Virus record (IMG/VR): IMGVR_UViG_3300042559_000447
Coordinates: 7,662-71,661 of that record
Strand: one strand, 5' to 3'
DNA length: 64,000 nucleotides
DNA from: a virus
Part shown: positions 6,572 through 63,692 of the stretch, in pieces
How the letters are laid out: the number at the start of each line of letters is the position of its first letter
Numbering within the stretch: the first letter of the stretch is position 1
Notes under the pieces: model-generated
What the model saw: the letters and a program-made list of their open reading frames with translations, nothing else
Database searches by the model: none
Told to the model about the DNA's origin: nothing
Made by a program: the position numbers and the translations under genes

Positions 6572-6743
6572 GTTAGGGTGTTGGATATGTTCTGACACCC
6601 CAACAACTATTGGTGTACGTGGTATCTAGCGTTTAATTGTTGACAGGTCAACAGCATCAACTATTTTACCATCGGGGTAGGGACTGAACTATGTCAGTAT
6701 GTGTCGAACGCACCCTATCCCACAACCATAAAACAAAAACATC

Positions 6744-7139
6744 ATGGAAACATCAAAAGTAATTGTGTCTAACAACGGCACTGATTGGGTATTTACCCTA
6801 GAACACGCAAGCAATCGTTCAGTGGACAGATTGCGTAACAGGTTTGCCTATGAATTCATGGCTTATTACGACCTATGCCGCAAAATCAAAGCCAAAGGGT
6901 TTAATGCTACACTCCCCTTTGATTTCAAGATAGTCAGGAACGGGTCTCTTGTGTTGGATACCCAAACTATGATCTCTACTGAGGCTAGACTGACCCTCAA
7001 GTTACAAAACAATGAGGTCGGTCGGGCTAGGTTTATCAACAAATTAAAACTTATCTCTGACTATGCTCACAGACCGACCGATGAGAAGCAATTGCAAGAC
7101 CAACTATTGGGTGAGGCAAAAGCACTATTAACCAAGTAA
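6744..7139 (+). CDS. Hypothetical protein (first early gene)
   Basis: 131-aa ORF with A-rich leader. Confidence 0.65.
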   Translation: METSKVIVSNNGTDWVFTLEHASNRSVDRLRNRFAYEFMAYYDLCRKIKAKGFNATLPFDFKIVRNGSLVLDTQTMISTEARLTLKLQNNEVGRARFINKLKLISDYAHRPTDEKQLQDQLLGEAKALLTK

Positions 7140-7146
7140 TCACCCA

Positions 7147-7199: not shown

Positions 7200-7217
7200 C
7201 AACCATAAAACAAAACT

Positions 7218-7679: not shown

Positions 7680-7710
7680 ATGTTCTGAGACCCCCAATAA
7701 AAATATTATC

Positions 7711-8545: not shown

Positions 8546-8650
8546 TGCAGAACGCACCTAAAGACCTACTCGATATCATTCATCAACATATCGAATCAGA
8601 GAAAAGATTAAATAAAATCATAGAAGAACTACAAAAAACAATTGAACAAT

Positions 8651-9352
8651 ATGAAAACACTATTGAGCAATGGCAACAGCAACGCCAAGACAAAGAAGAA
8701 TCACAGACCGACCAGGATTCTGTACCTACATCCATCTAATGTAGACGGCAAAGAGATGTGTCCTCATGCGTCCGACGGATGCCGGGCATCATGTCTCAAC
8801 ACTGCCGGTCGTGGGGCATTTAGTAATGTACAACTCGCACGTGTCAATCGTACCAAGTTCTATGTCAATCATAGGCTTGAGTTCTACAACCTATTGCACA
8901 GCGAGATTTTAAAATTCGCACACTCATCTTCGCAGCCTGTCGCTATTCGTCTTAACGGTACATCTGATCAGCCTTTTGTTGAGACCTTAGTTGTGGCTCA
9001 GATGCGTGAGATACCTAGCAATGTTTTCTTCTACGACTATACTAAGAATCCTAAAAAAGCAGGTACTCGTATCCTACCTAGTGGGCATCGTTATACTGTA
9101 GCGTATTCGTATTCAGAGAAAGAGGGTTCTGAGACCCACGCCAAAAATATACTAGCCGACGGTGGTATTGTTGCAGTCGTATTCGACGAACTACCTGCCA
9201 CACATTGGGGTTATCCAGTTGTTGATGGCGATGAGCGAGACGATCTCATGCTAGACATTATGCCTAATATTGGAGGCACTATACTCGGACTCAAAGCAAA
9301 GGGTAAAGCCCGTAAAGATGTATCAGGATTTGTAATTAAATTAAAAAGATAA
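8651..9352 (+). CDS. GP88-like phage protein (radical-SAM-like Cys motif)
   Basis: CPHASDGCRASCL, RLNGTSD, FYDYTK, VDGD, GLKAKG. Confidence 0.75.
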   Translation: MKTLLSNGNSNAKTKKNHRPTRILYLHPSNVDGKEMCPHASDGCRASCLNTAGRGAFSNVQLARVNRTKFYVNHRLEFYNLLHSEILKFAHSSSQPVAIRLNGTSDQPFVETLVVAQMREIPSNVFFYDYTKNPKKAGTRILPSGHRYTVAYSYSEKEGSETHAKNILADGGIVAVVFDELPATHWGYPVVDGDERDDLMLDIMPNIGGTILGLKAKGKARKDVSGFVIKLKR

Positions 9353-9356
9353 TACC

Positions 9357-9713
9357 ATGAATCAAAATTTAGATCAAACATTTAACACCCTGTCAGTGGA
9401 ACTGAACAAGGCAGAGAACTCAATTGCTGATGCGTTGTACCTATGCAACAAAATCAGAAGAACTAACTATTTTCAACAGGAAGAACTACCCTCTTTTGAA
9501 AGTCAAGAACTCACTAGACAAATGTTCATGCAACTCAGAGATGATTTGCTAGACACTATCGAACTAGTAGACCCGGCAGGAATTGTAGAAATAAATACAA
9601 TGATTGACCGTGACAATACTATTAGAATAGATCTTGAGTGGAGTTTGCTTAGAGAGGAACTTGCTGACAAAATATTAAACACCCTTATCAATTATTACAA
9701 CCAAACAAAATAA
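9357..9713 (+). CDS. Hypothetical protein
   Basis: 118-aa ORF. Confidence 0.6.
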   Translation: MNQNLDQTFNTLSVELNKAENSIADALYLCNKIRRTNYFQQEELPSFESQELTRQMFMQLRDDLLDTIELVDPAGIVEINTMIDRDNTIRIDLEWSLLREELADKILNTLINYYNQTK

Positions 9714-9717
9714 CATC

Positions 9718-10632
9718 ATGACAAATTTAAATTCACAAATCGAACAGTTTGAAAAAACTATGGCTCTCCTTATGGAGACAGGTCTTAATTGGGAAATTAA
9801 GAAAGAACAATTCACTCACCCTACTGGGTTGATTACTGATCACTATGGTATCTTTAGATACGATCATGGTTCTGACACCCCCACATCTTGCCTTGGCTCT
9901 GTCAAGGGTAGGTACACAGAGTTATCTAACTTTGATTTAGCCGAGACTATCGTTAAGGCTACCGATTCAATTGGTATCAGTACCAATAGAGGTGGAGAAC
10001 TACAAGGCGGTCGCAAGGTATTCCTTCAGGCACAGCTGCCCGACGAATACATTGGTAAGTCAGGCGTTAAGCGTTGGGTTACTGTACTTAACTCACACGA
10101 TGGTTCATCTTCTATCTCGTTTGGTTCTAGTAACACAGTTGTTGTATGTGAGAATACATTCCATGCCGCACACAAAGAGGGTAGCAGGTTCAGACACACA
10201 GCCTCATCTAAAGAACGTATCGATCAGGCTATCAAAGACTTCCGTCAGACAATCAAAGCCGACGAGCAGATGATGAAAGTATTCCACATCATGTCTGAGC
10301 AGAAGCCTACTGAATCACTGGTTACAAAAGTAATCGAGTCCATGTTTGAGATTGGCTCAGTTAAAGAAAGTGCAGATACCATCTCTACTCGTAAGAAGAA
10401 TCAAGTACTTCAGTTTGCTGAGGCATACAACATCGAACGTCAACTTGAGGGCGATACAGTATGGGGATTGTTTAATGCGGTCACACGTTACACTAATCAC
10501 ATGGTCAGTACGTCTGATAGAAATCAGTACCTTATGACAGGCGGTGGAGCAGACATCAATAACAGCTCATACCAAACTATCTTGGCTTGGTTGGAACAAC
10601 ACACTATGTATAACGATCTTGTAACTATCTAA
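9718..10632 (+). CDS. DUF932 family protein (TIGR03299-like)
   Basis: GLNW, GGRKVF, NSHDGS, VVCENT, RHT, WGLFNAVT. Confidence 0.85.
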   Translation: MTNLNSQIEQFEKTMALLMETGLNWEIKKEQFTHPTGLITDHYGIFRYDHGSDTPTSCLGSVKGRYTELSNFDLAETIVKATDSIGISTNRGGELQGGRKVFLQAQLPDEYIGKSGVKRWVTVLNSHDGSSSISFGSSNTVVVCENTFHAAHKEGSRFRHTASSKERIDQAIKDFRQTIKADEQMMKVFHIMSEQKPTESLVTKVIESMFEIGSVKESADTISTRKKNQVLQFAEAYNIERQLEGDTVWGLFNAVTRYTNHMVSTSDRNQYLMTGGGADINNSSYQTILAWLEQHTMYNDLVTI

Positions 10633-10677
10633 TTAAAATTCAGGGGGGTTTCTGACCCCCCATTTAAAATTAAAACT

Positions 10678-11307
10678 ATGGCAAATCATTGTTGGAACTA
10701 CGCAGTATTCACAGGAAGCGAGTCAGCGTTACAAAAACTTATTGACAACCTCAACAAAGTTAGAGAAGACTTTATCAAAGAACATCGTCCGCTACCGGAA
10801 CAACAGGCTTGGATATACGGACAGAACGGACACATTGTTGCGTTAACTGAAGAACCACCTATCGTTGATGGTATCTTTTCAATTGATCCTTATGATGCTT
10901 ACGGAAGTAAGTGGTATGAGTGTGACTGGGAGGTTGAGGAGGACGACGGAAAGATAAAGTCAGTTACATTACAAGGTTCAAGTGCATGGAGTCCTGCTCA
11001 CCCTTTGTTTGAGAAGATATGTATCAACTACGGCTTGAGTTGTTGGGGTAATTACGATGAGTCAGGCAATGACTTTGCAGGAGACTTTGAGATAACTCCT
11101 AATGGAACTACAACACATAACGAAATGACCTATCGTCAGTACATGGCTACCAATCACCCAGAAGCATTTTGGGAAGACAGAGTTAACGACATAGTTGATG
11201 GGGCATACGATTCTTTCGAGGATGTCCTTGCTGACTTTGAACACGTTGATTGGACACTGACAATGGCAGAGCAATCAGAACTAGAACAATTATTTAATAA
11301 AGATTAA
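10678..11307 (+). CDS. DUF1281/YubB ferredoxin-like protein
   Basis: MANHCWN start, GSKW, SAWSP, YDESG motifs. Confidence 0.65.
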   Translation: MANHCWNYAVFTGSESALQKLIDNLNKVREDFIKEHRPLPEQQAWIYGQNGHIVALTEEPPIVDGIFSIDPYDAYGSKWYECDWEVEEDDGKIKSVTLQGSSAWSPAHPLFEKICINYGLSCWGNYDESGNDFAGDFEITPNGTTTHNEMTYRQYMATNHPEAFWEDRVNDIVDGAYDSFEDVLADFEHVDWTLTMAEQSELEQLFNKD

Positions 11308-11308
11308 T

Positions 11309-11497
11309 ATGCAACTAAGAGAAGGAACTTTAGAAAACGCAGCGGCTTGGTTTGAGTCGTTAGGGTATTCGGTAACATTAAATGAAGCTTATGATACAAT
11401 GTATCTTGAACTTGATGGGTTCTCAGTAGAACTATCTCAATCAGAGATTGTATGTAGAGCCAATCAATGGGTACAACATCTTAAAAGAGAGGATTAA
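11309..11497 (+). CDS. Hypothetical protein
   Basis: Tightly packed small ORF. Confidence 0.55.
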   Translation: MQLREGTLENAAAWFESLGYSVTLNEAYDTMYLELDGFSVELSQSEIVCRANQWVQHLKRED

Positions 11498-12404: not shown

Positions 12405-12719
12405 ATGAAGTACGACATCACCCAACTCAAACGCAACAGAATCTTAGATGTTGCTCTTAACTATACGAATGTATCAAAAGAAGATTTCTTTCAGCTCAGA
12501 AATAAAAAGAAATATGCCGGTATCAGAAATGTGTGTATACATTTGATGTATGACAACGGAGTACACTACGAGGAGATTGCCAAGAGTTTGGGGATGTCGA
12601 TACAAAACGTATACTACCAACTCAGAACCAAAGACAAGTGGAAACAATTCGAGAAGGATTTGTATGACACCATTGGTCAAGAGATCAAGAATGAAAAATC
12701 AGAACTAAGCCTATACTAA
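12405..12719 (+). CDS. HTH protein, DnaA C-terminal-like
   Basis: IRNVCIHLM...YEEIAKSLGMSIQNVYY helix-turn-helix. Confidence 0.55.
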   Translation: MKYDITQLKRNRILDVALNYTNVSKEDFFQLRNKKKYAGIRNVCIHLMYDNGVHYEEIAKSLGMSIQNVYYQLRTKDKWKQFEKDLYDTIGQEIKNEKSELSLY

Positions 12720-13239: not shown

Positions 13240-14048
13240 GCAAATTGTTTGATTTGTTGTTTTGTTGTTTTCATGGTTTAATGTCTAAGGGGTCTTGTTC
13301 TGAGGCCCCCGACGACATTATGATACCAAGAGCAATGAGAACAACTCACCCAGACGAGCCGGTTGGCTATAATGAATTTCACACTAACTTAAGAGACCAA
13401 ATTAAAAAACAATATGACACAGAAAGAAGCAATTAGAATAGCCAAGGAGTTTGGCTTTCAAAAGATCACTGTTCTCCCAGAAGAATCTGGGCAGTCAACA
13501 TTTCATTATTTCGTACTAAAGCTAAAGGAAAAGCAGATTGAGTTTATGTTACACAACGATTGTTCATTTGATGACTGGGGTATGACAATAGAATTAGGAG
13601 ATTATATTTACTATGACTATGAGTCTTGTATAAATATTTTAGTTGCGATTATTAATGGTCAGTAAAGATATATATCAAAACATTGCAGAGTTAAATGCGT
13701 CAGTTAAGTATGACCCGATAACTTTGCTGGGTCTCAGAGTCGTACCTGCATTTGTAAATGGAGATTTTGTATATCGAATTTATAAAGACGCAGAACACAG
13801 AGCTGATCTCAAAACACTTACTGAAGCTAAGGTAACAATTGAAGTATTAAAGAATGAGGATAGAAGTTTATAGAAGTCAGATGCAAACCCCAATGGGAAC
13901 GTACTATCTAAACCTTACACACCCTGTACCCATGCGGTATGTAATGAAAGGAGAAGATGATATTGATACAGACTGGATTGAACAGAGACTGAATTTAATT
14001 GACGATGACATTTTAGAATTACAAGAATTAATAGAAGACTTACAATAA
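13236..14048 (+). CDS. Four overlapping small hypothetical ORFs (13236-13436, 13414-13665, 13655-13873, 13854-14048)
   Basis: Head-to-tail plus-strand ORFs. Confidence 0.5.
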
Positions 14049-16284: not shown

Positions 16285-16598
16285 TGGAAGAGTTAGTAAT
16301 GCACCTAGCAAGAATCATCTACAGGTTAAATGGTCTTTCACAAGAAGATAAAGATAAAATTATTGAACTTGTAGAGGAAACTAAAAAGAAAAGTAGTAAA
16401 TTTGTCCCCCCTACAATAGAGGAGGTAACACAATATCTTAAATCAGAAAACTATTCAAGCCCATATAAATATGCAGAGCAGTTTGTATCTTTCTATGGAG
16501 CGAAGGGTTGGATGATAGGGAAAAACAAAATGAAAAATTGGAAATTAGCAACTAAACAATGGAAAGAATGGGAGAAGAAAACAAAAGTATTGGTTTAA
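16284..16598 (+). CDS. Replication-initiator C-terminal-like protein
   Basis: FVPPTIEEV...FYGAKGWMIGKNKMKNWK motif. Confidence 0.6.
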   Translation: MEELVMHLARIIYRLNGLSQEDKDKIIELVEETKKKSSKFVPPTIEEVTQYLKSENYSSPYKYAEQFVSFYGAKGWMIGKNKMKNWKLATKQWKEWEKKTKVLV

Positions 16599-16978
16599 TC
16601 GTGGAAGCGTTAACCAAAAAAGTAGACGAGCTTAACAAGAGAATCGCAGAACTTGAATCAAAAACAAACATCATTCCTGATGTCTTTAACTTTCAAATGA
16701 AGTTTGATCAGCTGGTCGATGAAACCTGTAAGGTTATTTCAATTAGTAGAGAAGAACTAATGACTAGAAAAAGAACCAGGCATGCTGTATTGGGTAGACA
16801 GATCATCAGTTACATCGCTGTAAGACATATGGCAATGGCCACTACTGAAGTTGCCAGACGTATAAACAGAGATCACAGTAGCATCATACATCTTAAGAAT
16901 ACATTTTCAGATTATTTAGATGCTGAGTATGACATGGAAACAAAGTATTATAGGGCTGTGCTTAATGCAATAGTGTAA
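16559..16978 (+). CDS. DnaA C-terminal (domain IV)-like DNA-binding protein
   Basis: RxxxxVxxRQIxxY...EVARxxNRDHSSIIH signature. Confidence 0.75.
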   Translation: MERMGEENKSIGLIVEALTKKVDELNKRIAELESKTNIIPDVFNFQMKFDQLVDETCKVISISREELMTRKRTRHAVLGRQIISYIAVRHMAMATTEVARRINRDHSSIIHLKNTFSDYLDAEYDMETKYYRAVLNAIV

Positions 16979-18660: not shown

Positions 18661-18780
18661 TTAGCCAGCAGGCCACTGGATCGAAAACAAGGAAGCTTCC
18701 CATAAGAACAGCAGACCTTCTGAATCGTTAGTCAGCATAGTTATCAGGTTCTATGGATGCTTAATGCAAAAACCTGGCAT

Positions 18781-18866: not shown

Positions 18867-18867
18867 C

Positions 18868-19006: not shown

Positions 19007-19011
19007 TAAAT

Positions 19012-34214: not shown

Positions 34215-34545
34215 TTATTATCTCCTTTTGATTAGTTGCTAACTTAAAAGTTATATCGGCTTCCCATCTCTTTACTTCTTTACCGTCCTTATAAAGAATC
34301 AAAGTAGGTAAGGAGTGAATGTTTGCCAATTTCTTAAACTCTGGTCTCTTGTCTAAATCTACATAGTGATAACGCACAAAGGCACTATTCTGCCAAGCGT
34401 AATCATTTTTCTTATTGAATGATGCGTTATATTGTACTACCCATAGACCTTGTCTGAAGTTAGGCTCAGGTTGTTTCTGAGACCCCCCTACAAACACTAG
34501 TGCAGCAAGTGTTGCACTAATTGCAAAAGCAAGTATTGTTTTCAT
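34201..34545 (-). CDS. Exported thioredoxin-fold protein lacking CxxC
   Basis: Signal peptide; VVQYNASFN, VDLD, SLPTLILYKDGKEV. Confidence 0.65.
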   Translation of the reverse strand: MKTILAFAISATLAALVFVGGSQKQPEPNFRQGLWVVQYNASFNKKNDYAWQNSAFVRYHYVDLDKRPEFKKLANIHSLPTLILYKDGKEVKRWEADITFKLATNQKEIISATK

Positions 34546-42589: not shown

Positions 42590-42991
42590 TTATGTGTATA
42601 TATGTGTGTATCTTCCGGTCCAGTTTACGTTATTTGCTGTTGTAACAGTTGTTGTTCCGTCATCTAGTATCTGTATTCTTGTTACAAGCCATACATTTGA
42701 TGATTCTGAGGCCCCAGCATCTGCCTTACCACAATAAGAGTAAGGAGACACAAAATCTTGTCTCAATTCCTTTTCTAGAGCAGGAGGTGGTCCACCATAT
42801 GTCAACTCACCAGTTGCTGGATTATAGTAAACCAAACTTCCGGTTGTGCCAGATGGTAGATTTGTACTAGTCTCGTCAGTAACGGCCAAAGATCCACCGA
42901 CAGTCATCTGACCAGCAACATCCATCTCACCGCCAACGTTTACCTGACCTTCGACTTCTAGCTGTCCATATAGTTTATGTCTCTGTCCCAT
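42590..42991 (-). CDS. Structural protein
   Basis: Y.G.A..G..ES..W.I.RI C-terminal motif. Confidence 0.6.
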   Translation of the reverse strand: MGQRHKLYGQLEVEGQVNVGGEMDVAGQMTVGGSLAVTDETSTNLPSGTTGSLVYYNPATGELTYGGPPPALEKELRQDFVSPYSYCGKADAGASESSNVWLVTRIQILDDGTTTVTTANNVNWTGRYTHIYT

Positions 42992-44313
42992 TAGTATGTA
43001 GCCTCCACTATTTCTAGTTTAGATATTGCATTTATCTGTACTGATCCTGCTCCTGCAAAGGTAGGGAATTGGAATTGTAAGTTCAAGTTCTGAGACCCCC
43101 CGACAGAATAGTTCATCAATGCTGTGGTCATAGACGCATCAAATCCAGCCTCAGAAGACACGATAGCAACCAAAGTGGATATTCCACCTATTCTCTTAAA
43201 CACAAGCCTTGTGGTCTCAGAATAAGTATCCCCAATTGACATCCCAGGAGCATCACCAATAACATTTATTACCGTAGCAATAGTATCAATGGTTACATTC
43301 CAAGTGGCGTTGGGAACTGATGGTTCTATCAGCCCAGTAACTCCTGTACCATCTAAACTCAAATCCATAAATGTTCCACTCGGTTGTAACATGGTTCTAT
43401 AAGCAACCAAGGTCTTTGTGTAAAGGACGCTACCCCCGTCCCCATTCTCCCATACACCAAGAGACTGATTATACTTTAATACCTGTCCGTCCGTTGGAGA
43501 ACTTATTAATACGTTGTGTAACTCGTCTAGCTCATAACCGTTATCTACCTTTACGAATATCTTACCTTGATTGGCATGAGCGTAAACAACATATCCAACA
43601 ATAAGGGTATGCTGTGGGGCTTGTGGCTTTACTTTAGTAAGAGCACCTGGGGTTGTTGGACTTAAATAAAGAACATCTCCGTCCACCCAAGTCTCACCCT
43701 GAAGAGAACCTGTAGTGTTTATCTTGTTTACGTTTCCAAAGACGGTTATAAAACCTTCTTGGTTATTATCTATGTTTTCAGTAACAATCCCTAATGTAGT
43801 TGCTGAGTCTGGATCATTGTCACCCTGTGCTAAAACAACAGCAAGTCTTTGACCCTGAGCCCCACCCTCTGAGGCAAGCCTGACCCTAACTACTTTGTAC
43901 TGAGACTCTAATAAATTAGCACCTGTTTTATTTACAACACGAACTACAGTTTCTTGACCTACCTGTAATGTAACATTGCCTCCCTTTAATCTCAAGTCAG
44001 CAGTTCCGTCTACATCATTCCAAGCAAACATACCGGTCTGAAGTGCAGGGGTTGCTGCCGTGTCTAACTGAACATAGTCGGTAGTAATTCCACCCGTATC
44101 AATAGCATTAGTTGTGGTCGAACCTAAGTCAGTTACGTCTTGTAGGTCCTGAGTCCCACCCCCACCGCCTATTACAATGGTTTCTAACTCAGCAACAATT
44201 CGTCTGAGTCTATTCTCTTCGTCTTTGTATTTTTGGTCACGAGTCTGCTTGTATAATCTTAAAAGATCATTAGCCTGTTTTAGTATCTCTTGTCTCGTAA
44301 CATCAAACGCCAT
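42991..44313 (-). CDS. Fibre/structural protein
   Basis: LQDVTD.G.TT, GD.LYLS..PG.LT..P, ELDELHNV.I..P..GQVL.Y...W.N. Confidence 0.7.
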   Translation of the reverse strand: MAFDVTRQEILKQANDLLRLYKQTRDQKYKDEENRLRRIVAELETIVIGGGGGTQDLQDVTDLGSTTTNAIDTGGITTDYVQLDTAATPALQTGMFAWNDVDGTADLRLKGGNVTLQVGQETVVRVVNKTGANLLESQYKVVRVRLASEGGAQGQRLAVVLAQGDNDPDSATTLGIVTENIDNNQEGFITVFGNVNKINTTGSLQGETWVDGDVLYLSPTTPGALTKVKPQAPQHTLIVGYVVYAHANQGKIFVKVDNGYELDELHNVLISSPTDGQVLKYNQSLGVWENGDGGSVLYTKTLVAYRTMLQPSGTFMDLSLDGTGVTGLIEPSVPNATWNVTIDTIATVINVIGDAPGMSIGDTYSETTRLVFKRIGGISTLVAIVSSEAGFDASMTTALMNYSVGGSQNLNLQFQFPTFAGAGSVQINAISKLEIVEATY

Positions 44314-49600: not shown

Positions 49601-52600
49601 CATTTAGAATAGAAACTACCTCTCCGAGTGTTCTTTGGATTGTTACTGCATCTTGTTCAATGCTTCTAGCTAATCCTTGGAATTCGTTTGATTCTTTCTC
49701 TAGTATTTTTGCTACTGTTTGTTTTGTTCTTGCTTGGAAGAACTCTGTTACGTCTTGAGGAGTGAATCCTGCTTTTATTAAGCCGTAGTAAATGTCTTGT
49801 TCTGAGACCCCGGCCGCTCTTTGCTGATTGATGATGTCTTCTATCTCTTTATCTTGCGGATCAATCTCTTCTTCGATCTTCTCCTCTGTTGCGCCTTCAC
49901 CAAAGATAGTATTGTAGATAGACTTCATCTGTGGGTTCAACTCTTTACCAAGATTACCCAAGCCCAAAGCAGTGTAGATTTCTGTTAACCACGCTTTAAA
50001 CTTTTCAAACACCGCTTTTAGTTTGTTATTTGGAGCAACGCCCTCGTAAAGGTATCTCTCAAAGCCTCTAGCAAATGTCTCAGACGCATTAGTATTCCAA
50101 TCAGTTTCACCAGCAAAGTCTAGAACGGTCTGCTTTTCTTCATCAGAAAGGTAGTTTTCTAAAACGTGAGCCATCTCGTGTAAAGGTGAAGATACGTTAG
50201 GGTCAGTAACTGCATAAATAATTGCTGTACCGTCGTCTTTCAAATGCACCGCTGCACGAATAGTTCCTGGATCTTTTTGGAATAAAGTATAGTCTTTTAA
50301 TAAAACCTGATCATTTTTATAGGTTATGTAAACATTTCCTGGGGTTTGAGATCTTCCAACTTTTCCATATTGAGCATAGTCAACGACATTCTTAATGATA
50401 ACACCATCTGGGGCTTTGTTTGGGTCTTTTACTTTAGTTTTAACCCAATTAGTTAACTCCACAGGACTAAGACCAAATCTATTCTGAAGTTTTTCAAAAT
50501 CATTGTCATTTAAACCCAACAAAAGAATATCTAAATCTCTTGTTGTAAGATTATAATTTTGACTACCTTTTCCAAATAAATTGTATACAGTGCTGACATT
50601 TTGCCAATCGTTACCCTTAGCGTCTATAACAATTGGATTTTCTATTTTTAAATATGCCCTTCTTATGTTGTTTCTAGCGTCAGAATTATCTTTTAAATAA
50701 GAAAACGCCTTAGTTGGTAGGTCCGAATAATAGATTGCCCCACCAATATCTCCAGCATTATGATCCAATACACCGTAGTTTTCTTTTCCGTAAAGTTTTG
50801 CAGTACCCCTAAATGCATCTAAAGGTTCTCCGTTTTCATCAAGCACTTCAGAATTTCCAAACCAATTCTTGAATTCTTCGCTTTTTGTATCCTTAGCTAG
50901 TTTGACTTGTTCTTCTAATTCTTCAAGCAATTGTTCTCTTATTGCTTTATTTTCCTCTTGTTTTTTTGTTAACTGGTCTTTGAATGGAATTTTTTCTCCT
51001 ATCCTTTTGTTTTTAATAAATTCAATAGGATCTTTTATAATTGCCGAATTTGCTTTTTCTGGATTTATAACAACATATTCGTTCTCAGATACACTAAAAG
51101 CATCGTAACCAGCATCTTTGAACATTTGCGACCACAATTTATTATAATCCCACTTTATAAAATCTCCCATTCTAAGCCTAGCTTCGTTCAATGTCATACC
51201 CTCGAAGTCCTTTAACTTAGACAAAAATAAATCATAGTATGGGTTTTGTATAGAATTTTCTTCTAGTGCTTGTTTTATTTCAAACACAAAGCCTGAAGGT
51301 ATTCTGTCGTTTACGTTTAAAGAATTTAATTTATTTCTATCTACAAATGTTACGGTTTTTCCGTATTCACTTGCCTTGTATGGCACAGGTGTAAAATATA
51401 TACCCCAGCCATAATTTGCTCTAACTCCTCCTTTTACTTTATCAGGGTCAAAAGATTTTATTTTTTGATCACCACCATGAAAAACTACACCTTCTTTTGA
51501 TAATTCAGAAAATAATTTTTGCTTGTTTTCATCCTTCATGTAATCCTCAAGAGTAAGTTCTTCAGGCATTAAATCATTTGATAGTTTCACCATCTCCTTA
51601 TAGATAATATCGGAGTTTGAAAATTCACCACCTAAATCTCTTCTTGCGATAAAGTCAATTCCCATACCGCTACCGGACACCTCTATCAAATAATTATATT
51701 CAATATCTTGAAAAGCCTTTATTAGAGGGTACAACTTAGAATCTTTTCCTAGTTCGAGAATATCAAAATCATTAAGAGTTGTTTTTCCTATTTCGTATTC
51801 ATTTTCAATTCTTTCGGAAAGCTTCAAAAGATTTTCTTTTTGTATTGCTGTTAAATCGCCTTTCGGTGTTGTGGCGTTTATTAATTGTATAATATCTCTC
51901 TTTGTTTTAAAATCTGCATCTCTTAGTTTACCCAAAGCCTCTTTATAATTTTTAACCAACTCTCCAAAATTGCTTTGCATTTCTTCATACGTAGCCGGTC
52001 TTTCATATATTAATTCTAAAGCACTTTCCATACTCGAAATAAACCCATTCGATTTCATATAAGAAATAGGGTCTGCTTTATACTTTGGATCGGATCTTTT
52101 AAAGTTAAAGTTGATTTTTACAGCGTATAGTTTATTTACAATATCAGACAATATCAATACGGCTTCCTTGTCCTTATTTAAAAGAGGTTCTATTTTTTCA
52201 TGCAACTGCTCAATAAGTTCATCTGTATTGTATCCAAAGCTAGTATACCTATACTCATCAATAAGTTCGTCCGTTATTTTTTGTACGTTTTGGTTATTTG
52301 AATTTTCATAAGGAACCATTAATTGACTCAACATTGGACCAAGTTCTTTTTCTGAAATAAGGTTTTTTAATCCAATTTGTTTCTTTATTTCATATCTTAT
52401 AATTCCATTTAATATGTTATTCCTAATCTCTATGGGTTTAGAGTTAAAACTAAAATCTACTGGTAGATTTATTTTAACATTCTCAAGTTCTGGGAACAAC
52501 TCAAAAAGAGCATCTGCTTCTAATACATCACCCCAAGTAGATACTCCAGGTTGAATATCAACCCCCTCTTTTAATTTAGGATATGCAGGATGAGTATCTC

Positions 52601-55600
52601 CATACATCCAAATACCATCTTTACTTTGAAACCAACCTCTAGCAAAATAAACCGTAAGAGGATCTACCCCGTTCTTAAGATCTTCTTCTGCCAATATTTT
52701 ATCATCCAATGCTCTTCCAGAAGAAAGTTCTGGGTCATTTTTAACTGTATTCTGAAGAGCGATCCTTCCCTGATTAGATTGAATCACCTGAGACATACCT
52801 GCAACAATTGTTTGCTGGTCTATCTTTTCAAATGACAACATTGTTTCCAAGAACACATCGGGATCCAAACCTGAACGAATAGCAGCGAACTCAATCATTG
52901 TATTCATCAAGTTTGCAGCGTAGTTCTTTTGTTGTCTTAGTTTTCTAGGACCGGTAACTTTAGATTTAATTGCTGCAACGATAGGGTTGTCGTTTGGATT
53001 TGCAGCATCTGTTCCGTATAACTTTAAATCAAATGCCTTATCGAAGGCGGCTGTTTTAAGTCTCTTAATTCTTTCTTTTCTGGTAGATGCAAATGATTCA
53101 TACTTTTCTTTGAAGTCCATGAATGTGTCATATACACCAAGAGCATCAGCTTTTTGTTTAGCTATATCTTGTATCTGCTGTTCTGTAAGATTAGTTGTAT
53201 CTTGTCCTATGATATCTAGAAAGTCTTGTGCAGGAATCTTTCCTTGTAGGAATCTGATAGCCCCCACTTCTTCTGGCTTATACTCAGTACCCCTAGCTGT
53301 CTTAGAAATATTCTGAATCTGTTGCTTCTCCTGTTGTGCAAGAACAAATTCCTTCGCCTTCATGTTCATCTCACGCTTAGATAAGCCAGCACGAACATCT
53401 TTCATCTTTGTATTGTAGAAAGCGTAGGTATTGTTTGCAGTTTCCTTACCGGTATATTCTCTAGCAACAAACTCGTTTAAACTTTGTCTAAATGCCAACA
53501 AATCATTTTTCTGCAATTGTTCATCACCGAACACCTCAGACAATACTGACTCGTGATTGATAAGTAGGTTTGCAATGAATGTATCAGCGGCATCTGACAT
53601 TAAATTAGCACCGTTCAAAAAGTTAAGGTCTGAAGTAGAGAAAGCCTTTGTAAAGAAATCAGAGGATAACACAGCAGCCTTAACTTTGTTAAACATTGCT
53701 GTATTTTCAGTACTCATACTATTGAACTTCTCGATAAGGGGAGCCATATAGTTTGATACCCTAGCCATACCCTTTTGTCCGTCCGTATTTATCTTTGATC
53801 CTCCTAAAAAGAAAGAACCAAGATCCAATCTCATTTTACCACCAAACGCATTACGAAGAGCATTCGCAAAAGCATTTGCCTGTGGGTCGTTTGTGTTCAC
53901 CTGATCAACACCCTCAAACACATCAGAATCAACTTTTTGACGATACTGCTTTATCTTACCCATAACGCCAGACGCTGTATTCTTTACTGTGGTTGCGTTT
54001 CTCTCGCTAAGTTGATTTACTGTATCTCTACTGTATAATAACTTTCCGTCTTTCCAGATTAATTTAGAGTCATCCTCTATACCTAAATTAACCTTAGCAA
54101 TTTCTTTAGCCTTGTCAGAAGAAAGCATTCCGTTATCTGTAACCTTTTGCTCTACTTGTGCCTTTAGGTCAGAGTTTACATCTTGCCAAGACTCATTGAA
54201 TGAGCTGTATCCTTTTGATTGTAGGTTTCCTGTCTTAGGGTCGTATCTGTAAGTAGCACCTTTCTGAATCTCTCCGTCTGCCTCTACTACATAGAACTCT
54301 TCTCCTATGTCTGCTACTCTCTTTTCTACTTCTAGTTTTTCTTGTTTCTTTGTCTCTTCTACTTTTTCTTGAGGTATCTCTTGTTCTGAGGCCCCCGGCT
54401 CTTGTATAGGAGCGTCGCTCATAGGCGCAGGACCTGCTGGTACAGGAGGCTCTTCAATGTCAGTTACCAACGGACTAGGTTGTGACTTCTGATATTTGTT
54501 TTGTTCAATAGCAGCGTCCAACTGTCTGTCCATATCCAAAATCAAGGGATCAATAGATTGACCTTGTCTTGCTGCAATGTAATCAGTAAACTTTTGTTTT
54601 GATTTGACAAGCAAAGCGATATCACCAGGGGCGGTCAACATCAAAGAGGTAATACCAATTACTTCTAACTGACCTTCTTGTGTTGTTAAATCAAATGCCT
54701 TTTTAAAGTCGTACCCCTCGTTTGCCATTAAGTCAGCAATACCACCAGAAACCTCAGCCAACGTTTCACCGACTGCTCCACTCAAATACTTACCAAGAAC
54801 ATATAACGCTCTGTTTCTTCCCTTGAGTAGTTTCTCCATGCTCACTTTGCTCATTCCTGCCTCGTACAAAGACTCCGAAGCAATCTCACCCAATCCACCA
54901 GCAGCACTTTGGTCTGCTGCAACGTACGCCCCAGTTTTTGCTGCGGTTTTAAGTCCACCCTCTACGAATATCTCAAACGCTTTTACTGCTGTACTGTTAG
55001 TGCCATATCTTAACTTAAAGAATTCTTTAGCCTTTGTAAAGTATCTAGATGCAGCAACTACTCCACCTGCCTGATTTCCGATTGCCTCATATGCACCAAT
55101 CTCAACCATTGCGCCCAAAGTAGGCAATAACCCATAACCAACTTGTTCACCAATGCTCATCCTAGTTGCTTCCATGTCCTGCTCGCTAACATAGTAGCCG
55201 TTCTTCTGCATGAACTCAGCAAAGTTTCCTGCCTCTTCTGCATAGGTAAGAGCCTGACTAGATTTCTTTAGTCCACCAAATGTATTGATTGCAACATATT
55301 GCTCAACACCAGAGGTAAAAGATGCATTCTGTCTCTTTAATGGGTTTGAGTTGGTATAGATCCCTTTATTCAAAACGGAAAGTTCTGCTGTCTTTTCAGC
55401 AAATAACTTTTGGTTTGACTGTAATGTAATTAATTCTTCTTGTGAAGGTTGCCCAAAACCAGATGCAACTTTCTTTTCAATCTTTGCAGATTGGTCTAAA
55501 ACCATTTGGCGAAGATCTTCAACATCATTAAATAGGATGTTTCTTTCTTTAACCATTGCACCTAAAAGATTTGAATTATAATATTCCTTTGAGTATTTTT

Positions 55601-56855
55601 GATTTGCCTTTGCGAATGCTGCACTTGTAACAGCTGGATCCATTGGAAGCCTTGTTGTTGGATCATAAATAATCCCAGTAGCAATGTCTTCGTCTTTCTG
55701 TAACTTTTCAATTACTGATTTCTGCTGTTGAATTCTAGCATTTACTTCGTTAAGTTTATCTACATTTGTGAATCCACTTACTGTCTTTTCAATTGCCTTT
55801 TTCTCAGCGTTTAATTGATCCAACTTAGTATATTCTTGTGATATTTTTTTGAGGGGCTCAGATAACATCTCAAAGCCTTTTTTATTCATATCGAATTGAT
55901 ACGAATTACCCTCTTTTGCACCGAGAGTAAAATCTGATTCTATTGCCTCTTGGTTCTTTTGTAAATCTAATTCAGCAAACTTTTGTTTTCTGTAAGCATC
56001 ACGCTTTCTATTTATAAAGTTAAAGGCTTTCTCTTCGCTATAACCTAGACTCTGAGCCGTAGCAAATACTTGCTCTATACCTACAGTATACTTTGTATTG
56101 AAGTCTCCCTCTTTTTCTAAACGATAAGCAGCGTCCTTGGCTATGTTATCAGACAACTCACCAATCTGTAAATCAGTTAAGCCATACTCAGTGGCTATTG
56201 TATTGGTAAGTTCTGCGTCTGGAAATTCTTGTTGAGTTGGTTGTACTGCTTTCTTTTCTGTTCTAGTATCAAACTCTCTATTTAAAACAAGACCCCTGTC
56301 TAATAACTCTTTTTGGTTTTGTTTTCTCCACTGTTCAAATTTGTCTGGATCAACTGCTTTAAACTCTTCAAACTCGTCTACTGTGTTTAACTCCACCCCA
56401 TCAGGAGTTACGTTTAAACCAGCAGCTGCTACTTTAGAAAAAGTATTTATTGCTTTATTTCTTCCCTCTTCTTGGTCTTTTGCTAATTGTGCAGAAGGGT
56501 CGAATTTTGGTAATCCAAATGTGTTCTCTACCTTTACATTTCCGGCAGGTATCCAAGGCATTCTATCGCCTTGTACTTTTGTTTTGAATTGATCGTATGA
56601 GCTTATTCCAAACTTCTTGAAGTTCTGAGACCCCCCGAACTCTGAAAAGAATTCCTTCTGGTTTTTCTCTACTTGAAGATATTTTTCTAAATCGGTTGGG
56701 GTTGAAAAGAATTGACCATTCTTCATTGAGACAGTAGCAGGAAGAATCCCACTCTGTACTTTCAATGCGTCGTATAAGTTCTGATATGAAAAAGGCTGAG
56801 GGTTTTTTGGACTTGGTTGAGAACCCTCTGGAACAATATTAAAGTCTTCTGCCAT
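46635..56855 (-). CDS. Giant (3406 aa) polyvalent/ejection protein with LPD23-like, two ADP-ribosyltransferase-like and HExxH zincin-like domains
   Basis: GWF...DG.W (~52.6 kb); FHGG...G.GIYFT (~51.4 kb); FKNWFG.S.V.DENGEP...RGT...IYYS (~50.8 kb); HEMAH (50166-50180). Confidence 0.75.
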   Translation of the reverse strand: MAEDFNIVPEGSQPSPKNPQPFSYQNLYDALKVQSGILPATVSMKNGQFFSTPTDLEKYLQVEKNQKEFFSEFGGSQNFKKFGISSYDQFKTKVQGDRMPWIPAGNVKVENTFGLPKFDPSAQLAKDQEEGRNKAINTFSKVAAAGLNVTPDGVELNTVDEFEEFKAVDPDKFEQWRKQNQKELLDRGLVLNREFDTRTEKKAVQPTQQEFPDAELTNTIATEYGLTDLQIGELSDNIAKDAAYRLEKEGDFNTKYTVGIEQVFATAQSLGYSEEKAFNFINRKRDAYRKQKFAELDLQKNQEAIESDFTLGAKEGNSYQFDMNKKGFEMLSEPLKKISQEYTKLDQLNAEKKAIEKTVSGFTNVDKLNEVNARIQQQKSVIEKLQKDEDIATGIIYDPTTRLPMDPAVTSAAFAKANQKYSKEYYNSNLLGAMVKERNILFNDVEDLRQMVLDQSAKIEKKVASGFGQPSQEELITLQSNQKLFAEKTAELSVLNKGIYTNSNPLKRQNASFTSGVEQYVAINTFGGLKKSSQALTYAEEAGNFAEFMQKNGYYVSEQDMEATRMSIGEQVGYGLLPTLGAMVEIGAYEAIGNQAGGVVAASRYFTKAKEFFKLRYGTNSTAVKAFEIFVEGGLKTAAKTGAYVAADQSAAGGLGEIASESLYEAGMSKVSMEKLLKGRNRALYVLGKYLSGAVGETLAEVSGGIADLMANEGYDFKKAFDLTTQEGQLEVIGITSLMLTAPGDIALLVKSKQKFTDYIAARQGQSIDPLILDMDRQLDAAIEQNKYQKSQPSPLVTDIEEPPVPAGPAPMSDAPIQEPGASEQEIPQEKVEETKKQEKLEVEKRVADIGEEFYVVEADGEIQKGATYRYDPKTGNLQSKGYSSFNESWQDVNSDLKAQVEQKVTDNGMLSSDKAKEIAKVNLGIEDDSKLIWKDGKLLYSRDTVNQLSERNATTVKNTASGVMGKIKQYRQKVDSDVFEGVDQVNTNDPQANAFANALRNAFGGKMRLDLGSFFLGGSKINTDGQKGMARVSNYMAPLIEKFNSMSTENTAMFNKVKAAVLSSDFFTKAFSTSDLNFLNGANLMSDAADTFIANLLINHESVLSEVFGDEQLQKNDLLAFRQSLNEFVAREYTGKETANNTYAFYNTKMKDVRAGLSKREMNMKAKEFVLAQQEKQQIQNISKTARGTEYKPEEVGAIRFLQGKIPAQDFLDIIGQDTTNLTEQQIQDIAKQKADALGVYDTFMDFKEKYESFASTRKERIKRLKTAAFDKAFDLKLYGTDAANPNDNPIVAAIKSKVTGPRKLRQQKNYAANLMNTMIEFAAIRSGLDPDVFLETMLSFEKIDQQTIVAGMSQVIQSNQGRIALQNTVKNDPELSSGRALDDKILAEEDLKNGVDPLTVYFARGWFQSKDGIWMYGDTHPAYPKLKEGVDIQPGVSTWGDVLEADALFELFPELENVKINLPVDFSFNSKPIEIRNNILNGIIRYEIKKQIGLKNLISEKELGPMLSQLMVPYENSNNQNVQKITDELIDEYRYTSFGYNTDELIEQLHEKIEPLLNKDKEAVLILSDIVNKLYAVKINFNFKRSDPKYKADPISYMKSNGFISSMESALELIYERPATYEEMQSNFGELVKNYKEALGKLRDADFKTKRDIIQLINATTPKGDLTAIQKENLLKLSERIENEYEIGKTTLNDFDILELGKDSKLYPLIKAFQDIEYNYLIEVSGSGMGIDFIARRDLGGEFSNSDIIYKEMVKLSNDLMPEELTLEDYMKDENKQKLFSELSKEGVVFHGGDQKIKSFDPDKVKGGVRANYGWGIYFTPVPYKASEYGKTVTFVDRNKLNSLNVNDRIPSGFVFEIKQALEENSIQNPYYDLFLSKLKDFEGMTLNEARLRMGDFIKWDYNKLWSQMFKDAGYDAFSVSENEYVVINPEKANSAIIKDPIEFIKNKRIGEKIPFKDQLTKKQEENKAIREQLLEELEEQVKLAKDTKSEEFKNWFGNSEVLDENGEPLDAFRGTAKLYGKENYGVLDHNAGDIGGAIYYSDLPTKAFSYLKDNSDARNNIRRAYLKIENPIVIDAKGNDWQNVSTVYNLFGKGSQNYNLTTRDLDILLLGLNDNDFEKLQNRFGLSPVELTNWVKTKVKDPNKAPDGVIIKNVVDYAQYGKVGRSQTPGNVYITYKNDQVLLKDYTLFQKDPGTIRAAVHLKDDGTAIIYAVTDPNVSSPLHEMAHVLENYLSDEEKQTVLDFAGETDWNTNASETFARGFERYLYEGVAPNNKLKAVFEKFKAWLTEIYTALGLGNLGKELNPQMKSIYNTIFGEGATEEKIEEEIDPQDKEIEDIINQQRAAGVSEQDIYYGLIKAGFTPQDVTEFFQARTKQTVAKILEKESNEFQGLARSIEQDAVTIQRTLGEVVSILNELSPTELNDLMSDLKDMENMDVALVALIQKIQEGLNAGTDVTSLFAQAVQTGTNAGRVLQRMKLLSQQQGQYKLYEAIKKYNKADRKIPTAKEKELKILAVDMDKKKAEYEQAKSEATLYPTQMNRNNPNMTNLEYAFVAQQNYDAARIAFYKALKPYARNSSFTDLYDTLVRGNLLTLGSQVINLTSSAIKTLINLPLNIVATGVGITRNQVNALRGKQSERVTYRGAGYYGSITSKYKQAFKEGWKAISQGSVVEDANGLQISRGFNGFRAFRDTFGMLYDYALSNMSEEEMATKYNYPLNKAGKIPTKDKILRAMEGTFGAVAEANFRLLGGPDAFFRTTAYFGALYEQGKVLGLSEEKKPSLNGMSEMEIFIKLNSDYSNQPAMDEAMRLIYANDGLLYKNVIQKFFGGVKKTYGSEDLGKSAVTTLVPYQKIPTNVAEEFVQFASPTVSFVASIYHMRKASELKDEIEKTRNPSTKKKLIEDRRKALRDSDMAMSRMLISIGLQYAATLIIENLAVSGSASPAAGVDEKERQWKKDFMPADQINVSLLMRNWGKKNKSKDWIKGDQTFDLRTFGVFGAILSMKKTEVETKNRSEEKINLSKINTEVGEGSVSMMGSALIFPYLLDQTMVKNLGDAFTAITEITKSGNINAFSDFAAGYFNTVVTAFAPNHLNTFTKFNREFESSYKATPDEKASMGFGELTVNTLSNRLKEKVPFYFDNNYLYQYDITGMPRRQTPKTLDSVFELMGVDVPRRDYRGISKDGGAFDYTKQIYEKINNSKKDLDWKDVIYLTFAYGNVKEVIPPDVPKSIETELFRVSLNKEEMDEFRNKRNFLRNEIIGSIFESDSDIFKQLLDLNGPENRNEDGSRITYGDKNQLLGYVIAGKMLGKIYSSVDNVIKETLGPVIVNKRLSELTPEEKAVIDKIKKENVLGDLIGEFYEDKDAISQLKEIVKSELLSEQPEQQGQQQMPEDEFGTTITDEIVD

Positions 56856-56891
56856 ATTACAAATATAGCAAAAAAGATCAACTAATCAAAG

Positions 56892-62300: not shown

Positions 62301-63692
62301 TGTAGTAAGAGCGAGAAGTTCTTCAGCCGATATCTGAATAAGTTCCTGACCTATTTCTGTATGATCTACAACCAACTCCGTTTCCGCACCGCTCAAAGTA
62401 AATCTTTGAACCACAGAAGCAGTAAATGAAGTTCCTTTATATTCAACAACAACCAACTCAAAGTATTTGTAAATACCAGGAGTAAAATTTTTAACAGTTA
62501 GTTTTACCGCTTTGTTTGTAACTGTATCCGCAGGGTCACCGTAAATTTCATAAGCCTTGTCCTTAGTTTTAGAATAAATAGGAAAAGGATTTGTTATTTC
62601 TATAAAGTCTTGATATACGAAATCTTCGGTTAAGAATCTTCCTGTATATCTTTTGTTTCCTGCTTTTATTTTACCCTTACCTTCTATGATTTCTATGTCC
62701 TCGAAATAAGAAGTTTCGTTTGGTAAGAAGAACAATGTTTCAAAATCAACATTGGCCAAATCATATCTTCCCTCTGTTACATTTAGAGCACCATTGATTG
62801 TCTTTCTATTATTGTAGTTTAAGTATAATACTCTTGGAGGATTTAGGTTGTCTGTCCAGTATATGTTAATCTGAGGCCCCACCCTTTCGATTTGCATTTC
62901 TGCTTTTCTCTGAGGATGAAATTTTAATTTCTTTGAGCGAAGGAGTTTAGTATATGAATAACCTGTAGCGTTAGGATATATTACACCAATTTCTGAAGTG
63001 CGAGATGTTCCGTCTGGGTTTAAGTTATCTCCGGCAAGTAACACATACATTTCGTCTCCCAACTGAGTAGAACCGATAAATGTAAACTTACCAGAATCTG
63101 AACGGTACTCAGAGATTTGTGCGAACTTTGCATACTCCCCTTGAGTATTTGTAATCAAGAAGAAGAACTCAGTTGTAAGAGTTGTTGTTACATCAAAGTA
63201 ACCAGCAACAGCGGTTCCAGATATTGTTTTAGTTGTAGTAGTTGCGCTGTAGGTAAATAAGCCACCAAGCCACGCATTAAGAATGTTGTCGAGATCTGCT
63301 TTGATTACAGTAACCGCACTGGCCAAGTTGGTTGAACTATAGCTTACAAAAGGTCCTGTTGTCTTAGTGTGCAACACACCAGTGGTATCCTCGATGTAAA
63401 TTGTTGCATCGTGTGAAGCAACAGAGCCATTGTAGATATCTTCTACGTCTACAAATACACGATATGTTTGGGTCTCAGATGCAAATGTTAAAGCAGTTCC
63501 GGGAACACCATTGACAGTATTCAACAAGTTAGAGTTTCCCTTAACAGGAACAATGCCTGCAAAGTCTCCACCGTTTGAATCTATTGCCCTGTGACGAATA
63601 TTTCGAGCGTCAATATAATTACCTTTACCAATGTATGAAACATCGGTATCCTTGTCCATAAAACCAGTTGGAGATACTCTTACTTGTGACAT
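59370..63692 (-). CDS. Tail muzzle/stabilisation protein (P22 gp10/crAss muzzle-like)
   Basis: M.KDTD......Y.DA.NIR start, YWTDN.NPPR, GEI, FHSY.P, R.FG.W.K. Confidence 0.7.
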   Translation of the reverse strand: MSQVRVSPTGFMDKDTDVSYIGKGNYIDARNIRHRAIDSNGGDFAGIVPVKGNSNLLNTVNGVPGTALTFASETQTYRVFVDVEDIYNGSVASHDATIYIEDTTGVLHTKTTGPFVSYSSTNLASAVTVIKADLDNILNAWLGGLFTYSATTTTKTISGTAVAGYFDVTTTLTTEFFFLITNTQGEYAKFAQISEYRSDSGKFTFIGSTQLGDEMYVLLAGDNLNPDGTSRTSEIGVIYPNATGYSYTKLLRSKKLKFHPQRKAEMQIERVGPQINIYWTDNLNPPRVLYLNYNNRKTINGALNVTEGRYDLANVDFETLFFLPNETSYFEDIEIIEGKGKIKAGNKRYTGRFLTEDFVYQDFIEITNPFPIYSKTKDKAYEIYGDPADTVTNKAVKLTVKNFTPGIYKYFELVVVEYKGTSFTASVVQRFTLSGAETELVVDHTEIGQELIQISAEELLALTTKYIAVKNITQHDNRMVLSNLKEQVDYNLNDWATQIEHSIEETFIEGTGILEWADTPAPNINYGEYAVPENVRDYTGYMINDTYRFGIQVQWKNTGKWSNAFWVDDIRFDGSNTNVNASDNRRKTFGGSVTSVNTGTDTITVNNHGFYEGQRIIFSGTTPPSPLFFNVYYYAINVTANTFQVAQDPNPTTVLNLTTSGTAVTVIKKKIDNNLAEPLSDTENRAKVFYPKFYNIDLEYLVDTNGDGTGDTPLKKLIKAFKIVRSERIPEVMATGLFSSSIRVIYATYEDIMPIYIEGSIPYGTADNPSKISSRKYVNFLSSDLYFGGQYEYLPGDKIKVLGPFKNNLEQANKAVASSTSLYVQSNGFFVDPLTHDAQYSDYGIDDAYFIEAGGKKISGSNRFRTETDATAIGLGRNGSVRSSYYFDLTSAISAPHASMSSNDKGLYYGQVFRDLGGNLKYPRNKELSFYQSVGHLFIVEETSNGTINAQSVFGGDIFNQKCYLKQKGKRPSKQDGNAISFYSQNTRNSQLISVLEYVSYGVSPGSVFPQIIDSNPPLPTGAVMNVGEWRTGLIAWIEEGYDTYEQLEYDESYSAVYQASDVQAFDENNEFDGSSPVRITWSAKKITGSLKDNYRVFKPLDFADLDLTRGEISHHEVINNSFYTFQEFSVQRQYFRDASLVGAQEGTDIVVGSGSILGAPGVELTSIGTSKKESVVKGKNPNGKDVVYWYNDRLQKLLRLAGDGVQVLSDRGLSTFFVNNGKYVSNEFYPLSGKGVHGVWNDRYGEAIFTFKYNDGVSNKSFTVAYDEIKNGFVSFHSYTPNIYLPYNNTFFSPDPEAGFENTLYLHDTGLNYSFYGVIGDYEPYIEFVMNYDPNLPKIFEAIQINSELIPYASANKPVYFNTKNHTSYLDNSDMELREDLFYSTIKNDSTGTGLNSGDTSRLFGRWIKMKVFLASAAGTQKLINAIVKFRPSPRLYNT

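Follow-up and report, generated by a model that had tools for sequence, protein, structure and literature searches.

A strand-polarised word in the genome of an uncultured crAss-like phage from lake water, related in kind to one-strand motifs of a few other phages

The genome of phage tf, whose arms converge, carries 14 TACT/RTGMC sites, all on the top strand and 11 of them in its left half, and the available part of that report gives 8-9 sites on one strand for its relatives (PMC3517423). For the word WACTRTGAC, what is accessible of a second report records 13 strand-specific coverage drops, a one-strand enrichment in 61 phages and 88% of the sites in genes (PMC11780129). The function of one-strand phage words is described, in the same portion of the tf report, as unclear since the T5 work of the 1960s (PMC3517423). 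Here we describe the 12-mer TTCTGASRCCCC in a 64,000-nt window (the whole stretch of DNA analysed, bases 7662-71661 of the 71,661-bp IMG/VR record IMGVR_UViG_3300042559_000447; the genome is called G000 below). The word is real, strongly selected and phage-intrinsic, and it adds a further form to the one-strand motifs described for a few groups of phages; we tentatively read it as a nick site.

Exact copies of TTCTGASRCCCC number ten on the + strand of the window and none on the − strand, and the whole record likewise holds 10:0, against an expectation of 0.01 in 100 dinucleotide shuffles (maximum 1). The initial annotation, made from the letters of the window, had listed these ten copies and had put the chance expectation far below one; each copy was recovered where it had been placed. 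When synonymous codons were permuted within each open reading frame (ORF), a shuffle that keeps both the proteins and the codon usage (n = 300), exact copies within ORFs averaged 0.18 with a maximum of 2, compared with eight observed. Across 19 aligned copies, ten from G000 and nine from its nearest relative (G001), a G precedes the word in 15 and a C follows it in 14, and the full consensus is G-TTCTGAGACCCC-C, i.e. G-TTCTGA[G/C][A/G]CCCC-C. Weak C/A-rich conservation over about 6 more nt on the 3' side extends the element to some 20 nt, with the information spanning 12-14 positions. There is one perfect copy per 7 kb, and four of the ten fall between 6.6 and 13.3 kb, which bears out the earlier remark that density is highest at 6.5-13 kb. 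The motif keeps its strand across the switch of gene direction at ~34 kb, and copies inside genes are read as S-E/D-T in sense and as GGSQ or G[VA]SE in antisense, six of the perfect copies lying antisense inside the late, leftward genes. Perfect copies outside ORFs, three of ten in G000 (ORFs of at least 70 aa) and three of nine in G001 (ORFs of at least 100 aa), are all at the start of the rightward arm. The word is a DNA-level, strand-polarised, selected and phage-intrinsic signal, independent of gene direction and reading frame; its several frames and its failure to flip with the genes had already led the initial annotation to propose a DNA-level signal.

This polarity is absolute for perfect copies only, and imperfect copies occur on both strands. 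Copies with one mismatch number seven on the + strand and six on the − strand of the window, where about 0.5 would be expected on both strands together with exact copies included; the codon-preserving shuffles gave means of 1.17 for the + strand and 0.35 (maximum 3) for the − strand. The six − strand copies lie at 1081, 17014, 25137, 28576, 30695 and 43211, four of them altered in the C run, and allowing up to two mismatches brings the − strand count to 15. The near copies named in the initial annotation are real, with one or two mismatches and offsets of one or two bases, whereas its count for the − strand was too low. Some near copies are accounted for by conserved peptides, namely YLRP and GGIRR in the reductase and WGSPN in a structural protein. 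We also observed an 11-mer, TCTGAGACCCA, six times (+ strand at 9127, 36050 and 45351; − strand at 3760, 13728 and 63469), a non-polar sub-family with three copies per strand that ends in CCCA and not in CCCC.

The source is a crAss-like phage of an uncultured lineage from lake water, and the sequencing runs that contain this sequence are labelled lake-water or freshwater metagenomes (24 DNA runs listed, with no RNA run among them). Genes run rightward from ~1.4 to 33.9 kb, the direction switches at ~34.0-34.2 kb, and from 34.2 kb they run leftward in an arm that wraps from the end of the window into the first 8.6 kb of the record. The rightward arm encodes a YqaJ/RecE-type exonuclease, a serine-recombinase N-terminal domain, a T7-gp4-like primase-helicase, a DNA polymerase, a ribonucleotide reductase and TerL, and the leftward arm holds the structural genes, including a 1440-aa crAss-type muzzle protein and a 3406-aa protein. 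Searches of GenBank phages found neither a nucleotide counterpart of the 3406-aa gene nor, at E up to 1e-10, a protein similar to TerL. The densest group of copies had been placed just after a putative genome end, which the record does not establish: the 'direct terminal repeat' of the record is a 127-bp end overlap located elsewhere, which we have taken as an assembler overlap and so not as evidence of real genome ends. Yet the linear contig of G001 ends and starts in the equivalent non-coding region, corresponding to window ~6050-6400.

A TerL search of IMG/VR returned 38 loci, from which the relatives are coded G001-G007, G009 and G010. The nearest, G001 (TerL 86% identical, DNA 65-79%), has nine perfect copies, all on the equivalent strand (9:0), and each of two fragments from its clade gives 2:0, so the motif is present in related phages with the same polarity. 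Multiple 12-mers were found only in the clade with TerL identity of at least 86%, and more distant relatives (~70-76% TerL identity) hold 0-4 copies. Elsewhere in IMG/VR, 40 stretches matched the 14-mer, 39 of them with a single copy, and more than one copy occurred only in the contig of G001. Between G000 and G001 only one site has the same position (window 54384, G001 43006), where GGGGCCTCAGAA is kept within a stretch that is 51% identical in protein, and some 18 of the 10 + 9 sites are therefore independent. At the other sites the partner genome encodes other residues, for example GVDD for GVSE, and the site at 49800 was gained or lost through protein-altering changes. Because positions differ between the two genomes, selection keeps the number and orientation of the sites and not their position.

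The polarity extends, in a looser form, beyond this clade. With genomes oriented by their replication genes, the 9-mer core TCTGA[ACG][AG]CC (dinucleotide-shuffle expectation 0.5-1.4 per strand) gave +:− counts of 22:8 in G000, 21:7 in G001, 22:5 in G003, 11:0 in G010, 11:6 in G009, 11:5 in G002, 9:4 in G004, 3:3 in G005, 6:8 in G006 and 7:5 in G007. In G003 the + core sites lie in both arms, and the consensus of G003 and G010 is W-TCTGA-VR-CC-S-M-A. Thirty-six of the 38 TerL-centred loci could be oriented, and their summed core count was 91:31, compared with 12:9 for a reversed-pattern control, the loci overlapping one another and the genomes just listed, and so not being independent. TerL and the two genes upstream of it (window 29808-33949) form a module that is inverted relative to both arms in G002-G007 and G010 and co-oriented with the replication genes in G000, G001 and G009, so that orienting these genomes by TerL misleads. 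An apparent opposite polarity of the core in G003, obtained with TerL orientation, was rejected on synteny as an artefact of the inverted TerML module. By these sequence comparisons, the word is an old feature of the phage group, and this clade has a longer, stricter version.

Table 1. Perfect copies of the word, one near copy, the long non-coding region and two candidate reader genes, in window coordinates (MFE, minimum free energy; z, z-score of the hairpin).
Feature	Position	Strand	Context
Exact copy TTCTGACACCCC	6590..6601	+	Intergenic, 142 nt 5' of ATG 6744; 3' arm of a long inverted repeat; MFE -19.1, z -4.2
Exact copy TTCTGAGACCCC	7683..7694	+	Intergenic, 16 nt 5' of ATG 7711; hairpin z -2.2
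Exact copy	9870..9881	+	Sense in DUF932 gene 9718-10632, S-D-T-P; other residues in relatives
One-mismatch copy TTCTGACCCCCC	10650..10661	+	Hairpin GGGGGGT-TTCTG-ACCCCCC; intergenic, 16 nt 5' of ATG 10678
Exact copy TTCTGAGGCCCC	13298..13309	+	Past stop 13239; preceded by inverted half copy GGGGTCT; hairpin z -3.2
Exact copy	34475..34486	+	Antisense in − strand ORF 34201-34545, GGSQ
Exact copy	42704..42715	+	Antisense in − strand ORF 42590-42991, GASE
Exact copy	43088..43099	+	Antisense in − strand ORF 42991-44313, GGSQ; one-mismatch − strand copy 123 nt off at 43211
Exact copy	49800..49811	+	Antisense in 3406-aa gene, GVSE; G-V-D-D in G001
Exact copy	54384..54395	+	Antisense in 3406-aa gene, GASE; sole site at the same position in G001 (43006)
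Exact copy	56623..56634	+	Antisense in 3406-aa gene, GGSQ; not at this position in G001
Long non-coding region	5324..6743		1.4 kb; cluster of C5-6 runs; adjoins the dense motif group on its left
HTH protein, 104 aa, candidate reader	12405..12719	+	Weak Bac_DnaA_C and Sigma70_r4 matches, below cut-off; in G000, G001 and G009
DnaA domain-IV HTH protein, 139 aa, candidate reader	16559..16978	+	Pfam Bac_DnaA_C, E 9e-12, 45.3 bits (cut-off 31.5)

Genome-wide polarity that is independent of gene direction implies that the process using the word is confined to one strand, or to one direction of travel along the whole molecule. Our best reading, which we hold tentatively and with less than even confidence, is that the word is the recognition site of a phage-encoded strand-specific nicking enzyme, by analogy with the nick motifs of T5, phiKMV and tf. 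We rank it first because site-specific nicking is, in the available parts of the two reports, the documented cause of such a signature in phage genomes (PMC3517423, PMC11780129). A phage-encoded activity would read the word on one DNA strand, or the DNA in one direction, and a phage endonuclease would nick one strand at or beside every perfect copy, either in the late phase of infection or as the DNA is packaged; the DNA in virions would thus carry about ten ligatable nicks on one strand. Perfect copies on the opposite strand would not be tolerated, as opposed nicks would break the genome, and only damaged copies would persist there. The ratio of 10:0 for perfect copies as against 7:6 for one-mismatch copies, together with the damaged state of the − strand copies, fits an enzyme of sharp specificity whose sites are harmful when opposed.

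The likeness to tf and the LUZ24-like group lies in a short asymmetric word with two degenerate positions, present in ~9-14 copies per genome on one strand and in genes as well as spacers; as in tf, the arms converge, one part of the genome is richer in copies and relatives retain the word. Here the motif is on the sense strand of the left arm, with its densest group at the start of that arm. The sequence TTCTGAGAC is identical to the tf word TACTGTGAC at seven of nine positions, a match that may arise by chance in roughly 1 in 100 cases, on a rough estimate allowing offsets. The present word differs from that of the tf group in its length (12-14 nt as opposed to 9) and its confinement to a narrow clade, and its nicks are argued by analogy. 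The localized nicks of T5/BF23 and the phiKMV-like phages are likewise strand-specific and occur in phages that encode replication genes of the T7 or T5 type, and the phiKMV consensus, as given in the accessible text, is long as well (CGACxxxxxCCTA/CTCCGG; PMC3517423). Their sequences are unlike ours, the same text finds the short T5 consensus also on the un-nicked strand (PMC3517423), and the evidence presented here is that of sequence.

Several observations weigh against nicking. Perfect copies are over-represented in the spacers of the early arm, near start codons and with an inverted half copy that can form a hairpin. Four copies end 16-22 nt 5' of a start codon (the perfect copy at window 7683, the near copy at 10650, and those at 2565 and 4214 in G001), and the intergenic copies are preceded by an inverted partial copy with which they can fold (z -4.2, -3.2 and -2.2 relative to 48-nt windows of the genome), whereas copies within genes show no comparable folding (z -1.8 to +0.7). 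This intergenic anatomy suggests a role in gene expression or the binding of a protein. Both strands are enriched in degenerate copies, the 9-mer core standing at 22:8 compared with 5.4 and 1.4 in the codon-preserving shuffles, and sites hardly keep their positions between G000 and G001, with one in common. As far as the tf report is available, its single-substitution variants are few and all on one strand, while ours are on both (PMC3517423); the nick motif of that group is not enriched outside genes, in contrast to the spacer copies and start-proximal hairpins seen here, and its positions are described as similar where ours are hardly conserved. The nicks, the enzyme and the timing would each be carried over from these other phages, and the public runs take the form of contigs, in which strand breaks cannot show. 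No nuclease whose presence tracks the motif emerged from a phyletic comparison of the relatives over the scanned ORFs, and the genes limited to the motif-rich genomes G000 and G001 are small unknowns of 143, 109, 72 and 60 aa; window 20034-20465 and 4994-5323 hold two such clade-specific genes.

The gene content relevant to a reader of the word was taken from 40 window ORFs scanned with Pfam, PHROGs or both. Nuclease-like matches among them were the YqaJ/RecE-type exonuclease, a metallo-phosphoesterase (a weak DNA-repair exonuclease match) and the serine-recombinase N-terminal domain, all three of which are also present in relatives that lack multiple 12-mers. Neither an HNH or GIY-YIG family nor an FtsK-like gene was found among these 40, many small ORFs being outside the scan or of no known family. 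The 143-aa protein matched no Pfam or PHROGs family and no GenBank phage, and its Atlas look-alikes were all 'hypothetical viral'. Most genes that G000 and G001 have and G002-G007 lack are also in G009, which has no 12-mer, but G009 is 69% complete and this is weak evidence. The 170-aa first gene of the + arm was considered as a correlate of polarity and rejected, since it has weak homologues in all relatives. The two helix-turn-helix (HTH) proteins of the DnaA_C type listed in Table 1 are no more than candidate readers.

These HTH proteins bring in the strongest of the other explanations, which we nevertheless consider doubtful: the copies may be one-way roadblocks or loading sites for a phage DNA-binding protein, for example one of the DnaA-domain-IV-like kind, acting as a Tus/Ter-like stop for a replication fork or RNA polymerase, or as its point of entry. 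Their effect would be to keep replication to a single direction, starting from the non-coding region at ~5.3-6.7 kb, or to silence all rightward transcription in the late phase of infection. Ter comprises about ten asymmetric sites with a strict 11-14 bp core and acts in one direction, and the present word matches it in asymmetry, strictness, a length of 12-14 bp and a number of about ten. Ter sites face each other in two groups, whereas all copies here point one way, and no Tus-like protein was identified among the scanned ORFs. The presence of two encoded DnaA_C-type proteins would suit the roadblock explanation, as would the graded weaker copies on both strands and the inverted half sites of intergenic copies, which are in keeping with a binding protein. 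The densest copies adjoin the long non-coding region, and in G003 they adjoin an array of hairpins; polarity is also stronger in the structural arm (~37:6 as against ~28:13 in our own tally over G000, G001 and G003). On the other side, tblastn also detects the better DnaA_C protein in G005, where polarity is lacking, the literature yielded no phage precedent for a genome-wide one-way barrier, and binding proteins do not usually separate perfect from one-mismatch copies so sharply. A bolder form, to which we give somewhat less weight still, is a viral Ter-like system in which a DnaA-domain-IV-like protein, perhaps, forms chromosome-wide one-way barriers that impose a single direction of replication or transcription across opposed arms, the word then not being a nick site; alternatively, the sites would pace a stepwise entry of the genome from its early end.

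An unlikely explanation, on a par with the last, is that the copies are directional transcription signals, whether promoters, factor-dependent terminators or pause/antitermination sites for rightward transcription. In the left arm they would act on the early genes, and across the late arm they would either repress or promote antisense transcription, possibly coupled to stepwise entry. The six extragenic perfect copies of the two genomes and the four copies, perfect or near, that end shortly before an ATG speak for it, as do the restriction of hairpins to intergenic copies and the weak downstream conservation that makes up the ~20-nt element. Orientation independent of gene direction, with most perfect copies antisense in late genes, is difficult to reconcile with such a function, and no phage RNA polymerase was found, the 3406-aa protein having neither a DFDxD motif nor a match to an RNA polymerase family. 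In the available part of the preprint on the crAss-like phage phi14:2, early transcripts have no common upstream motif (10.1101/2020.03.07.982082), which also argues against it. The 3406-aa protein (window 46635-56855, − strand) gave only a sub-threshold ART-PolyVal match at residues 1790-1844, and it may not be a crAss-type virion RNA polymerase. A repeat in G001 that had been taken for a Bacteroidetes-type promoter was rejected as such, being a tandem array: at 3240-3600 (replication-oriented), in the early region between two motif copies, there are about 25 copies of the 15-bp unit TAGGTTTGCA-YCGCT.

Quite improbable, in our judgement, is that the word marks priming or complementary-strand initiation sites of the T7-gp4-like primase-helicase, placed on the lagging-strand template of a fork travelling one way through the whole genome. 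The gp4-like primase-helicase and the DNA polymerase are conserved in all relatives, the polarity tracks the replication genes and not TerL, core sites are ~3 kb apart, and the complement of the word contains GGGTC or GTGTC, which are the T7 primase sites. Known primases read ~3 nt, however, against the 12-14 nt of this word, its GAGGCC variant has no GTC, and both the threshold at perfect copies and the hairpins would be left unexplained.

The weakest proposal, and one that we regard as scarcely probable, is the suggestion of the initial annotation that the word is a Chi-like or KOPS-like signal (KOPS, FtsK-orienting polar sequences) for a host helicase-nuclease or translocase: genome-wide polarity, a G-rich complement that faces the presumed first-entering end where copies are densest, and a partial core bias of ~3:1 that resembles the skew of Chi would agree with it, but the 12-mer was not enriched in 401 genomes evenly drawn from the phylum of a Bacteroidetes-labelled metagenome-assembled genome (MAG), a phylum that may not be that of the phage host (present in 145, at most four per genome, the level of the reversed-pattern control), nor was the 10-mer core in 81 genomes of the same phylum (at most 30 per 4.4-Mb genome). 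Like Chi (RecBCD/AddAB) and KOPS (FtsK), the word is polar and over-represented, as expected of a word read by a translocating enzyme in one orientation; those are host-genome signals of 5-8 nt, whereas this one has 12-14 nt, exceeds the length of known Chi and belongs to one phage lineage, with single chance copies in other viral contigs and none in relatives at 70% TerL identity. In bacterial species genomes the 14-mer occurred as single copies only, over many phyla, among the matches listed. A Chi- or KOPS-type host signal is thus unlikely, on evidence that is strong but not proof. The MAG G035 was set aside as a host lead, its 10-mer copies lying in an intergenic palindromic repeat, GGAGACGGG-TCTGA-GACCCGTCTC, with no homology to the phage. 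In that MAG (L240, G035:C11 2400-12200; L241, 6400-6850) the palindrome GGAGACGGGTCTGAGACCCGTCTC stands at gene ends, and its TCTGAGACC is common with the phage word, apparently by chance.

Several other features of these genomes deserve mention. The long non-coding region (window 5324-6743) has ten C5-6 runs within 5382-5574 and two copies of the repeat AATTTATTGGACA, and TGTGACA repeats flank a TATATATATA/GC-rich element that is kept in G001. An identical 16-mer, CAACCATAAAACAAAA, occurs at window 6723-6738 and 7200-7215, immediately 5' of the starts at 6744 and 7218, and may be a shared leader or translation-initiation element. One-strand arrays of 7-17 hairpins of the form CAACC-TTY-GGTTG (5-bp stem, 3-nt loop) were seen within 0.5-3 kb in G003 (66903-67355), G004 (56886-58281) and G005 (8593-11416; all TerL-oriented), the last in a leftward block ~5-7 kb from a divergent gene switch; none is present in G000 or G001. 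Such an array may be an origin or an early regulatory array. At window 15592-16978 a 104-aa ORF and then the DnaA_C-type HTH protein come after a 230-aa serine recombinase, which has a Resolvase domain and the beginning of a Recombinase domain and may be a split large serine recombinase; every relative keeps the 230-aa protein, at 62-78%, although the lineage appears to be lytic. In the tRNA region (window 18660-19800), Rfam placed tRNAs at 18781-18866 and 19416-19485, and ARAGORN reported a tRNA-Ser(GGA) and an odd one at 19674-19765; at ~19014-19190 there are apparent tRNA-like halves with a long insert between them and CCA at the end. Apart from the tRNAs at 18.8-19.8 kb, nothing turned up in the Rfam and tRNA scans, and thus no RNA containing the word or its complement.

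Titles and abstracts in the literature yielded no description of nicks or polar motifs in crAss-like phages, nor of a Bacteroidetes Chi sequence. Few groups of cultured phages are known to have one-strand words, and here one is found in an uncultured crAss-like lineage from a lake, with a polarity that goes with the replication and structural arms, including in genomes whose terminase module is inverted. Across lineages the word grades naturally from a loose 9-mer core into a strict 14-mer, and this offers a comparative handle on the process that reads the word and on the protein that co-varies with it. If the proposed nicks are real, nicked genomes would extend to a crAss-like lineage with a presumed Bacteroidota host, and they would affect the long-read sequencing and assembly of such genomes; if they are not confirmed, the system would be something new.

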